Notes under the pieces: generated by a model
The model's database searches: none
The model's input: only the letters and a program-made list of their open reading frames with translations
Told to the model about the DNA's origin: nothing
Assembly: GCF_003334385.1 (NCBI RefSeq)
Contig: NZ_QOWN01000018.1
Source: Escherichia coli
GTDB lineage: Bacteria > Pseudomonadota > Gammaproteobacteria > Enterobacterales > Enterobacteriaceae
Strand: one strand, 5' to 3'
Length of the DNA: 64,000 bases
Program-made: the position numbers and the translations under genes
Shown: positions 6,560 to 53,024 of the stretch, in pieces
How positions within the stretch are numbered: position 1 is the stretch's first letter
Layout: each line of letters starts with the position of its first letter

Positions 6560-6610
6560 TAATCTCTATGCTCCGGCTGAAGGGATGTTTTTGCCGGACA
6601 CAAAGGATAA

Positions 6611-18601: not shown

Positions 18602-18635
<34 letters not shown>

Positions 18636-49094: not shown

Positions 49095-49637
49095 ATGATT
49101 ATCTATTTACACGGTTTTGACTCTAACAGTCCGGGTAACCACGAGAAAGTCTTACAATTGCAGTTTATTGACCCGGATGTACGCTTGATAAGCTACAGTA
49201 CGCGGCATCCGAAACATGATATGCAGCATCTGCTTAAAGAAGTGGACAAAATGTTGCAACTGAACGTTGACGAGCGTCCGCTAATTTGCGGCGTTGGCTT
49301 GGGCGGATACTGGGCGGAACGGATTGGTTTTCTTTGCGACATCCGCCAGGTGATCTTCAACCCTAATTTGTTCCCTTATGAGAACATGGAAGGCAAGATT
49401 GATCGCCCGGAAGAGTATGCCGATATTGCCACTAAGTGTGTGACCAACTTCCGTGAGAAGAATCGCGATCGTTGCCTGGTGATTTTGTCGCGTAATGATG
49501 AAGCGCTTAACAGCCAGCGGACATCTGAAGAGTTGCATCATTATTACGAGATTGTCTGGGACGAAGAGCAGACGCACAAATTCAAGAATATCTCCCCGCA
49601 TTTACAGCGCATTAAAGCGTTCAAAACCCTCGGGTAA
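49095..49637 (+). CDS. ycfP: UPF0227 alpha/beta-hydrolase-fold protein YcfP
   Basis: ORF track 49038..49637; start placed at ATG 49095 ([15 protein letters not shown]...), 180 aa. Confidence 0.85.
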
Positions 49638-49648
49638 ATGCCCTCGTC

Positions 49649-49765
49649 GCATCAGGTAACCTTGCCGGTACCTGATGCGCTCCGAATTCTGTGGGTCGGA
49701 TAAGGCGTCCACGCCGCATCCGACAGTCGAGCATCAATGCCTGATGCGCTTCTTATCAGGCCTAC
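49649..49765. repeat. Cluster of three palindromic units (BIME/REP-like) downstream of ycfP
   Basis: GCATCAGGTA-N10-TACCTGATGC (49649-49678); GTCGGATAAGGCGTCCACGCCGCATCCGAC (49695-49724); GCCTGATGCGCTTCTTATCAGGC (49739-49761). Confidence 0.75.
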
Positions 49766-50036
49766 CGAACGCCCTGCATACACCCCTCACTCTATATCAC
49801 TCTCACAAATTCGCTCAAATAATAAACAATAAACTCTGTTTTTTGATCTCACCCGGTAAAGTCGCCTATCTTTTCAGCAACAAAACTTGATTAACATCAA
49901 TTTTGGTATGACCAATGCACCATTCATGTTATTCTCAATAGCGAAGAACATTTTCATTGCTGTAACCTGTTGTTAATTAAGAGCTATGTTAATAACCATT
50001 AATTAACAATTGGTTAATAAATTTAAGGGGGTCACG

Positions 50037-51341
50037 TTGACTACGCCATTGAAAAAGATTGTGATTGTCGGCGGCGGTGCTGGTGGGCTGGAAATGGCAA
50101 CACAGCTGGGGCATAAGCTGGGACGCAAGAAAAAAGCCAAAATTACGCTGGTCGATCGTAACCACAGCCACCTGTGGAAACCGCTGCTGCACGAAGTGGC
50201 GACTGGCTCGCTTGATGAAGGCGTCGATGCGTTGAGCTATCTGGCCCATGCGCGCAATCATGGTTTCCAGTTCCAGCTGGGTTCCGTCATTGATATTGAT
50301 CGTGAAGCGAAAACAATCACTATTGCAGAACTGCGCGACGAGAAAGGTGAACTGCTGGTTCCGGAACGTAAAATCGCCTATGACACCCTGGTAATGGCGC
50401 TGGGTAGCACCTCTAACGATTTCAATACGCCAGGTGTCAAAGAGAACTGCATTTTCCTCGATAACCCGCACCAGGCGCGTCGCTTCCACCAGGAGATGCT
50501 GAATTTGTTCCTGAAATACTCCGCCAACCTGGGCGCGAATGGCAAAGTGAACATTGCGATTGTCGGCGGCGGCGCGACGGGTGTAGAACTCTCCGCTGAA
50601 TTGCACAACGCGGTCAAGCAACTGCACAGCTACGGTTACAAAGGCCTGACCAACGAAGCCCTGAACGTAACGCTGGTAGAAGCGGGAGAACGTATTTTGC
50701 CTGCGTTACCGCCACGTATCTCTGCTGCGGCCCACAACGAGCTAACGAAACTTGGCGTTCGCGTGCTGACGCAAACCATGGTCACCAGTGCTGATGAAGG
50801 CGGCCTGCACACTAAAGATGGCGAATATATTGAGGCTGATCTGATGGTATGGGCAGCCGGGATCAAAGCGCCAGACTTCCTGAAAGATATCGGTGGTCTT
50901 GAAACTAACCGTATCAACCAGCTGGTGGTGGAACCGACGCTGCAAACCACCCGCGATCCAGACATTTACGCTATTGGCGACTGCGCGTCATGCCCGCGTC
51001 CGGAAGGGGGCTTTGTTCCGCCGCGTGCTCAGGCTGCACACCAGATGGCGACTTGCGCAATGAACAACATTCTGGCGCAGATGAACGGTAAGCCGCTGAA
51101 AAATTATCAGTATAAAGATCATGGTTCGCTGGTATCGCTGTCGAACTTCTCCACCGTCGGTAGCCTGATGGGTAACCTGACGCGCGGCTCAATGATGATT
51201 GAAGGACGAATTGCGCGCTTTGTATATATCTCGCTATACCGAATGCATCAGATTGCGCTGCATGGTTACTTTAAAACCGGATTAATGATGCTGGTGGGGA
51301 GTATTAACCGCGTTATCCGTCCGCGTTTGAAGTTGCATTAA
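50037..51341 (+). CDS. ndh: Type II NADH:quinone oxidoreductase (NDH-2)
   Basis: ORF track 50010..51341; start placed at TTG 50037 ([19 protein letters not shown]..., FAD-binding GxGxxG), 434 aa. Confidence 0.95.
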
Positions 51342-52784: not shown

Positions 52785-52939
52785 GATGCCGTTGTACCTG
52801 GTGACTGTGAATGAAAGGTTATTATAAAAATAATCACCTCCGTTCACCAGTCCAGATCCCATAAAAATAATTGCTTTCTATTTAACTGAAATTTAAAGAT
52901 TTTTAAATTAATTAATGATTGTTATAAAAAATATCTTGT

Positions 52940-52957: not shown

Positions 52958-53024
52958 CTATCATTTAGTTATCGATCGTTAAGTAATTGCTTGCGACGTC
53001 ATTCATCTGCATAAGGCCACTATT

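Follow-up and report, generated by a model that had tools for sequence, protein, structure and literature searches.

The spacer between ycfP and ndh in the analysed window, a stretch of DNA of 64,000 nucleotides, is of the E. coli K-12 type and consists of three functionally separate parts: a REP/BIME cluster, the ndh promoter Pndh and a 93-nt transcribed leader. We give this explanation as a whole, including the proposal that a leader hairpin and a UUG start codon would set the dose of NDH-2, a probability of about 85%. NDH-2, the respiratory NADH dehydrogenase II encoded by ndh, is the NADH entry point to the aerobic respiratory chain that does not pump protons. It is also a major endogenous source of reactive oxygen, which makes its dose important for the cell. 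The control region of ndh is well studied and already known; new here is only the conservation, in aligned sequences across the order Enterobacterales, of the ndh control architecture and of the TTG start codon.

Locus identity and composition of the spacer

The gene order thiK-nagZ-ycfP-ndh-ycfJ-comR is that of the E. coli chromosomal neighbourhood of the window. The ycfP-ndh intergenic spacer runs from 49638 to 50036 (399 bp), bounded by the ycfP stop codon TAA (49635-49637) on one side and by ndh on the other, and is base-for-base that of K-12 MG1655; with the start codon included (49638-50039), 402 of 402 bases are the same. The K-12 MG1655 annotation places the end of ycfP at 1165685 and ndh at 1166085-1167389, which leaves a gap of 399 bp. 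Given this identity, coordinates from the K-12 literature carry over directly to the window. A 701-nt query over the spacer region found matches in all complete E. coli genomes (5426/5426), where the annotated features are ycfP and ndh.

Base composition changes sharply along the spacer, from a GC fraction of 0.59 (49638-49775) to 0.34 (49776-50036) and 0.235 (49960-50027), with a window mean of 0.517. The initial annotation had described a 399-bp spacer with three palindromic units followed by an AT-rich stretch of TTAAT/ATTAA motifs, all of which are present as judged by coordinates, inverted repeats, GC content and shuffles, and it had correctly placed a CAATTG palindrome at 50007-50012. 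Its view of this layout as typical of a promoter under several regulators holds in part: the promoter is indeed a multi-regulator one, with published roles for FNR, ArcA-P, HU/IHF and six overlapping factors, but the TTAAT segment is transcribed and the REPs are not part of the conserved control region.

A REP/BIME cluster downstream of ycfP

In an inverted-repeat search the palindromic units together span 49648-49769. The first (49648-49679) is a REP-like palindrome, CGCATCAGGTA, 10 nt, TACCTGATGCG, with 11-nt arms that are 100% complementary; rather than a canonical unit, it consists of two inverted REP 'head' words, a head-to-head pair of CCTGATGCG, which has 7 copies in the window versus 0.66 expected (about 10-fold enriched). 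The second (49691-49724, minus strand) is a Y-type REP palindromic unit with 3 mismatches to GCCGGATGCGGCGTnnACGCCTTATCCGGCCTAC, a level at which 0 chance matches are expected; other Y-type copies lie at 18602 and 29880 in the window. The third (49739-49765, plus strand) is a short Z-type REP unit, GCCTGATGCG-ctt-CTTATCAGGCCTAC, in the opposite orientation to the Y unit, which makes a BIME-like pair. The features that define REP/BIME elements are found here: a roughly 35-nt imperfect palindrome with the Y or Z consensus, an extragenic position after the stop codon of ycfP and before Pndh, dispersed copies, and alternating orientation of units 2 (minus) and 3 (plus). The Rfam model of the REP-derived naRNA4 narrowly missed its gathering threshold of 59.5 bits against 49694-49762, with a score of 56.5 bits (E = 3.6e-09); since naRNA4 models one particular REP locus, this sub-threshold score leaves REP membership intact.

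By analogy with such elements, the cluster (49648-49765) is probably a 3'-end stabiliser or terminator-like structure for ycfP, and it is also a target for the insertion of IS elements. In E. coli strain N96, IS621 is inserted within the third (Z-type) unit, and the targeting of REPs by IS621 is already known from a passage of PMC2817692. The layout described in the initial annotation implied a further role, that of an upstream regulatory module of ndh acting, for example, through gyrase or IHF binding or local supercoiling. The cluster is 180-300 bp upstream of the ndh transcription start, and the same passage of PMC2817692 reports that BIMEs bind several proteins. However, of the 101 species compared, E. 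coli and E. albertii alone have REP words upstream of ndh, while the remaining control region is conserved; within E. coli the REP part is polymorphic, with an exact match in 1608 of 5407 genomes versus 4015 of 5425 for the leader; and in N96 the cluster is itself interrupted by IS621. A regulatory role for the cluster is thus improbable: REP words that are confined to Escherichia, variable within E. coli and open to IS621 insertion argue for generic repeat DNA 3' of ycfP with no conserved role in ndh control. As judged from these sequence comparisons, the REPs are bystanders to ndh control.

The ndh promoter and its upstream regulator sites

An in vitro run-off/RNA-seq study placed the Pndh start at U00096.3 position 1,165,992, with TATTCT as the -10 element. 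The start maps to an A at position 49944 of the window (plus strand), which gives a leader of 93 nt. Both the hexamer and the preceding TG in TGtTATTCT (49927-49936, plus strand) are at least 90% conserved, and we infer that the element is an extended -10. A sigma-70 -35/-10 promoter scan returned no match at Pndh, which we attribute to a poor -35 and an apparent extended -10 type; Pndh was defined by the published start site and the conserved TG-n-TATTCT.

The scan for FNR sites, proposed in the initial annotation together with scans for Fis and IHF, returned a perfect consensus box, TTGATtaacATCAA (FNR box I, 49887-49900, plus strand), which is centred at -50.5 and is the sole zero-mismatch match in the 64 kb. 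It has the TTGAT-N4-ATCAA form of boxes at FNR-controlled promoters and keeps its position, 142-162 nt ahead of the start codon, in 100 of the 101 species scanned. FNR ChIP-seq and expression data (PMC3688515) give an ndh site at -50.5, repression by FNR and a peak 157 bp upstream of the start codon; this peak maps to window position 49880, within 14 bp of the box. A candidate upstream FNR half-site, TTGATctcaCCCGG (49843-49856, plus strand), was read from the sequence with its centre at -94.5 and is not conserved beyond Escherichia. We take this to be the -94.5 position of Meng et al. 1997. A targeted literature search for the FNR positions -94.5 and -50.5 together found nothing.

Two bases after the FNR box, and overlapping the -35 region, is a PdhR-type box, TTGGTatgACCAA (49903-49915, plus strand), with 1 mismatch to ATTGGTnnnACCAAT. 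This ATTGGTnnnACCAAT-like box fits a place of ndh in the PdhR regulon, with the window scan as a whole not above chance and binding itself taken from the literature. In most genera the 13-mer is unchanged and follows the FNR box by 16 nt; it has been lost in Erwinia and most Pantoea.

For Fis and IHF, consensus scans of the window gave no overall enrichment above chance. Only two of the matches are noteworthy: an exact Fis core consensus, GCTCAAATAATAAAC (49813-49827, plus strand), centred at -124, and a mirrored IHF-like pair with 1 mismatch in the leader. A second, weaker Fis match (2 mismatches) is at -73. The two Fis matches agree with the Fis sites that Green et al. 1996 reportedly placed at -123 and -72. 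An in vivo occupancy study reports that sites of six transcription factors overlap at ndh, with IHF, PdhR, NsrR and ArcA among the named occupants, and binding of IHF and HU at ndh is cited in the literature. Published work further describes FNR, ArcA-P and IHF as repressors of Pndh, and adds PdhR, NsrR and Fis to its regulators or occupants. Pndh is a sigma-70 promoter with an apparent extended -10, a poor -35 under the PdhR box, the FNR box at -50.5 and Fis-like sites further upstream. The strongest regulatory signals in this region, namely the FNR box, the PdhR-type box and the extended -10, had been missed by the initial annotation.

The TTAAT cluster as a predicted downstream operator

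The motifs TTAAT and ATTAA occur 7 times in 71 nt, where dinucleotide-preserving shuffles have a mean of 1.3 and only 4 of 2000 reach 7; this is the sole place in the 64-kb window with at least 6 such motifs per 71 nt. The cluster had been taken for upstream promoter DNA, a placement refuted by the transcription start at 49944, from which it follows that the cluster covers +20 to +73 of the transcribed leader. It forms a 54-nt inverted repeat in which 49963-49987 pairs with 49992-50016.

As DNA, this repeat carries two convergent ArcA-type boxes together with IHF/Fis-like sites, all of them past the start, where bound repressors could block RNA polymerase. The first putative ArcA box is TGTTAATTAAgAGCTA (49971-49986, plus strand, centre +35.5) and the second, convergent with the first, is TGTTAATTAAtGGTTA (49993-50008, minus strand, centre +57.5); in the literature, Rolfe et al. 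predicted ArcA sites at +36, +52, +57, +66 and +68 and found that ArcA-P represses ndh in vitro. Two exact ArcA 10-mers, WGTTAATTAW, lie convergently within the inverted repeat, and the 15-mer ArcA box GTTAATTAAATGTTA has two matches in the leader, with 2 and 3 mismatches, where matches with at most 3 mismatches number only 4 in 64 kb. By its 10-mers, its 15-mer matches and the positions +36 and +57, the repeat is a predicted ArcA-P operator. The consensus scan also found TAACAATTGGTTA (50003-50015, plus strand), which contains CAATTG and is IHF-consensus-like with 1 mismatch, and its IHF-like mirror copy TAACAACAGGTTA (49963-49975, minus strand), so that the outer arms of the repeat read TAACAAnnGGTTA, 1 mismatch from the IHF consensus. 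In the species alignment, TTAACAATTGGTT is the most conserved leader block.

The leader hairpin as RNA

As RNA, the leader repeat is predicted to fold into a long, TTAAT-rich hairpin from +20 to +73 (49963-50016, plus strand), with stems UAACC/GGUUA and GUUGUUAAUUAA/UUAAUUAACAAU and, for the E. coli sense strand, an energy of -17.2 kcal/mol (z = -4.1). The hairpin contains a published RNase III site. Comparing RNA-seq of the wild type and an RNase III deletion, Gordon et al. 2017 (PMC5371410) reported a site named 'Intergenic (ycfP-ndh)' at 1,166,043, which was confirmed in vitro and for which 5' RACE revealed several cuts in a long double-stranded region; cleavage had no effect on the stability of the ndh transcript. 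Position 1,166,043 maps to 49995 in the window, within the leader hairpin. The TTAAT motifs and the CAATTG palindrome are thus both parts of a leader element that earlier work had already described. The near-uninterrupted double-stranded RNA of about two turns that is expected of an RNase III substrate is present here as 5 + 12 bp with apical pairs, and as up to about 24 bp elsewhere. The published RNase III work addressed mRNA stability, not translation, of ndh (PMC5371410).

A search with the covariance models of Rfam 15 at E values up to 1 gave no family match to the leader (49944-50036), the only match being that of naRNA4 upstream. We also considered the hairpin as an intrinsic terminator or attenuator and rejected this, as the AU-rich stem is followed by AAUAAAUUUAAGG with no U tract and no terminator-like site is present. 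A second, 5'-proximal hairpin just after the start site is plausible in Enterobacter, Pantoea and Erwinia but weak in E. coli, and was dropped.

Conservation of the leader across Enterobacterales

A degenerate DNA pattern for the Ndh peptide retrieved 120 species-level loci, nearly all of them from Enterobacterales. In most of the sampled species the FNR box, the leader hairpin, the Shine-Dalgarno sequence and the TTG are in the same register, as is the PdhR box except in Erwinia and most Pantoea. The leader blocks GTAACC, TTGTTAATTAAG, ATAAC, TTAATTAACAATTGGTTAA and AGGGGGTCA are all about 90% conserved, which makes the leader as conserved as the FNR and PdhR boxes. A hairpin was obtained in every species folded, with a mean of -15.6 kcal/mol and, in Enterobacter, values of up to -23 kcal/mol and about 24 bp.

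RNAalifold returned no consensus structure for the alignment of 101 species, and for this reason we examined instead one named hairpin in 101 distinct sequences, with column shuffles and slid partners as controls. Paired cells made up 82.9% of the total versus 78.8% in column shuffles, a value that none of 500 shuffles reached, and slid partners gave 23-55%; the antisense strand gave 76.6% pairing and the sense strand 82.9%. When each genus was represented by a single sequence, 83.9% of cells were paired versus 80.4% in shuffles (0 of 2000 reached the observed value). Changes on both sides of a pair were found in 64 cells versus 29 in shuffles of the 101 sequences. Compensatory double changes were modest (7 pairs versus 6.4 in shuffles) and at the genus level marginal (15 cells versus 8.5, with 114 of 2000 shuffles reaching the observed count). 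The pair 51-78 is U-A in 42 species, C-G in 18, U-G in 12, A-U in 3 and G-C in 2, and over the whole hairpin G-U cells outnumber A-C cells by 180 to 53, which favours the sense strand. A candidate U-G wobble in the Yersinia stem was discarded, since column counting gives a U-C mismatch at that position, and the claim of covariation was lowered for this reason.

These data bear on whether the inverted repeat matters as DNA alone, as a cluster of operators for ArcA-P, IHF and Fis, with the RNA hairpin and the RNase III cut as functionless by-products. The ArcA core TTAATTAA is itself palindromic, so two such boxes can pair automatically; moreover, the E. coli antisense strand folds slightly better than the sense strand (-18.9 kcal/mol), so the palindrome could be kept for DNA reasons alone. 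The predicted ArcA sites from +36 to +68 and the in vitro repression by ArcA-P, the two box matches exactly at such positions (of just 4 with at most 3 mismatches in 64 kb) and the IHF-like TAACAAnnGGTTA in both arms all fit this explanation. So do the unchanged transcript stability after RNase III cleavage (Gordon et al. 2017, PMC5371410), the RNAalifold result for the 101 species, and a 3' block, TTAACAATTGGTT, that is conserved beyond the needs of pairing. Nevertheless, changes in the central stem preserve pairing, the alternatives at pair 51-78 are spread across several genera, the excess of G-U over A-C cells favours a sense RNA strand and the observed pairing exceeds that of every shuffle. 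In addition, ArcA binds direct repeats, which gives no reason for mirror symmetry of about 25 nt per arm. That the register is kept over most of the order argues that the RNase III-cut hairpin is more than a by-product. We give a purely DNA-level role appreciable but minority credence.

At the other extreme, the hairpin could be primarily a post-transcriptional control element, in which folding and RNase III processing set the use of the Shine-Dalgarno sequence and the UUG, with the DNA motifs secondary. Cleavage in vivo and in vitro (PMC5371410), a hairpin in every species folded and the fixed distances between hairpin, Shine-Dalgarno sequence and TTG are in its favour, and other E. coli genes, adhE among them, require an RNase III cut of the 5' UTR for translation (PMC5371410, introduction). 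Against it, mRNA stability, which was what was assayed, is unaffected by cleavage (PMC5371410), the predicted leader fold leaves the Shine-Dalgarno sequence free, covariation is only moderate and no Rfam family matches the leader. We regard this extreme as rather unlikely. In our reading of the alignments, the palindrome is probably kept for both DNA and RNA reasons, and the evidence does not separate the two.

The UUG start codon and its proposed role in NDH-2 dosage

The ndh coding sequence (50037-51341, plus strand) begins with TTG at 50037-50039, as in the K-12 annotation, and the codons that follow encode T-T-P-L-K-K-I-V. The Shine-Dalgarno sequence AAGGGGG (50025-50031, plus strand) is 5 nt from the TTG, its AGGGGG is at least 90% conserved, and its spacing to the start is 4-8 nt across species. 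The gene thus has what is expected of a UUG-initiated gene, namely an in-frame UUG at proper Shine-Dalgarno spacing and no better start nearby. The TTG start at 50037 in the initial annotation agrees both with K-12 and with Young et al. 1981, who published a 'UUG initiation codon' for ndh. Two other candidates at this site were set aside. A mechanical ORF start at 50010, the TTG within CAATTG, is in a different frame or cut off by a stop codon in most species and has no Shine-Dalgarno sequence, and K-12 uses 50037; a 4-bp mini-hairpin at the start codon, GUCA-N3-UGAC, is too weak and excludes the first T of the TTG. The 1981 work reportedly used N-terminal protein sequencing.

Among 114 usable species, the codon aligned to the E. 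coli TTG is TTG in 101, GTG in 8 and ATG in 5, in a sample that spans Yersinia, Serratia, Pantoea, Erwinia, Pectobacterium, Dickeya, Edwardsiella, Hafnia and Sodalis. In only 4 species does a neighbouring in-frame ATG or GTG offer a possible real start, and 70 of 109 species are without any alternative in-frame upstream start. Position 1 of the start codon is T in 99 of 108 species, while the majority base at 19 four-fold sites within codons 1-57 has a mean frequency of 52% and a maximum of 78%.

The TTG could instead be a neutral historical accident without a role in dosage. In favour of this are the switches to GTG in 8 species and to ATG in 5, in which ndh has been retained, and a literature search for experiments on the ndh start codon found none. 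On the other hand, the T at the first position has survived in 99 of 108 species, in a stretch of 57 codons whose four-fold sites are close to saturation (mean majority fraction 0.52). With three start codons allowed and ATG as the one usually preferred, neutral drift would have replaced TTG in many lineages. We therefore hold a neutral origin to be very unlikely. That the weakest of the usual starts has been kept so deeply, beside a Shine-Dalgarno sequence that is strong and just as conserved, speaks for selection for a low translation rate, and the order-wide register of the unit, from the FNR and PdhR boxes through hairpin and Shine-Dalgarno sequence to the TTG, likewise argues that the weak start was selected and is not accidental. 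The comparison across species supports selection for a weak ndh start codon, and the suggestion of the initial annotation that the TTG limits NDH-2 translation is plausible on the same footing.

The hairpin ends 8 nt before a strong Shine-Dalgarno sequence that feeds a weak UUG; in the mechanism that we propose, the UUG start would cap NDH-2 synthesis per transcript, and RNase III processing of the leader may adjust how the UUG is used. The stronger proposal, that hairpin, Shine-Dalgarno sequence and UUG form one conserved NDH-2 dosing module in Enterobacterales in which RNase III tunes the use of the UUG, is speculative and we consider it doubtful. If true, it would make NDH-2 synthesis depend on RNase III activity or growth state, independently of the many transcriptional repressors.

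Comparison with known systems

The closest known system is K-12 Pndh itself, as described by Green, Guest and colleagues and in RegulonDB/EcoCyc. It is the same locus with no sequence difference, and its transcription start, -10, FNR site at -50.5, predicted ArcA sites and occupancy by several factors can all be placed in the window; beyond that record, only the order-wide conserved geometry and the extended reading of the -10 are added here.

The palindromic units share with known REP/BIME elements the consensus, an extragenic site just past a stop codon, the alternation of units 2 and 3 and the presence of further copies in the window. They differ in that the first unit is a head-to-head palindrome of atypical form, the third is internally deleted relative to the full Z unit of N96, and the naRNA4 score is below threshold. 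Similar to ArcA-P operators, which have TGTTA direct repeats 11 bp apart or the 10-mer WGTTAATTAW, the leader repeat has 10-mers, 15-mers and predicted positions; unlike the usual operators, its boxes are convergent, form a mirror-symmetric 54-nt unit, and lie downstream of the start and not over the promoter.

With the RNase III-processed 5' UTR hairpins of rnc, pnp and adhE, ndh shares a long, near-perfect leader hairpin that is cut in vivo and in vitro. Whereas the cut makes the rnc and pnp mRNAs less stable and, in adhE, exposes the ribosome-binding site (PMC5371410), the stability of the ndh transcript is unchanged and its Shine-Dalgarno sequence is outside the helix. Like other UUG-initiated bacterial genes, ndh combines the UUG with a strong Shine-Dalgarno sequence at normal spacing; what sets it apart is the retention of TTG in 101 of 114 Enterobacterales species, of which a targeted literature search returned no earlier account.

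Lineage-specific loss of the PdhR-type box

The PdhR-type box TTGGTATGACCAA, which adjoins the FNR box, is absent from the ndh loci of Erwinia (L034, L053, L079 and L098 among the retrieved loci) and of most Pantoea (L017, L054, L093, L096, L103, L108, L120 and further Pantoea loci). These loci still keep the FNR box, the leader hairpin and the TTG start codon. Given that the box is gone while these other elements stay, the sequence comparison suggests that ndh was released from PdhR control specifically in these lineages, Erwinia and most Pantoea. The upstream FNR half-site (window 49843-49856, centre -94.5) is neither conserved nor alignable outside Escherichia, unlike the conserved FNR box I.

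Leader hairpin and start codon

In the 3' arm of the leader hairpin, the block TTAACAATTGGTT (window 50001-50014), which includes the CAATTG palindrome, is at least 90% conserved, clearly better than the 5'-arm sequence with which it pairs, and pairing alone is thus insufficient to explain it. Within this block, ATTGGT is a PdhR-like half-site, and there is also an IHF-like match. Slightly downstream, at the equivalent of window positions 50033-50041, the loss of a single T, converting CACGTTGAC to CACGTGAC, gave rise to the GTG starts of ndh in Klebsiella, Raoultella, Kluyvera genomosp. 3 and Pseudocitrobacter (loci L094, L113, L118, L089 and L021). Combined with an upstream GTCAC in Raoultella and Pseudocitrobacter, this T loss creates a perfect palindrome, GTCACGTGAC, spanning the start codon. 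The N-terminal reading frame of ndh is disrupted 5' of the conserved peptide in Citrobacter amalonaticus AUH_CA_2023_1 (L106) and Candidatus Sodalis endolongispinus (L085), where the broken frame could represent either a pseudogene or an assembly error.

Other elements in the window and an IS621 insertion

Beyond the ndh leader, the only matches to the 15-mer ArcA box in the 64 kb, allowing up to three mismatches, are 52807-52821 (+) and 52959-52973 (-), in the vicinity of the comR 5' end and the sequence upstream of it. Elsewhere in the window, the Rfam matches above the gathering score are the RNase E 5' UTR element (rne5; 28344-28680, -), the SraB sRNA (30541-30709, +) and the PyrC leader (6560-6609, -).

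The ycfP-ndh spacer of E. coli N96 carries IS621 at about positions 1195-2465 of locus L002, inserted in the third REP unit immediately 3' of CTTATCAGGCCT, equivalent to about window position 49763. This unit is a full-length Z-type unit in N96, whereas in the window it is internally shortened. IS621 is a member of the IS110 family, with a bridge-RNA recombinase.
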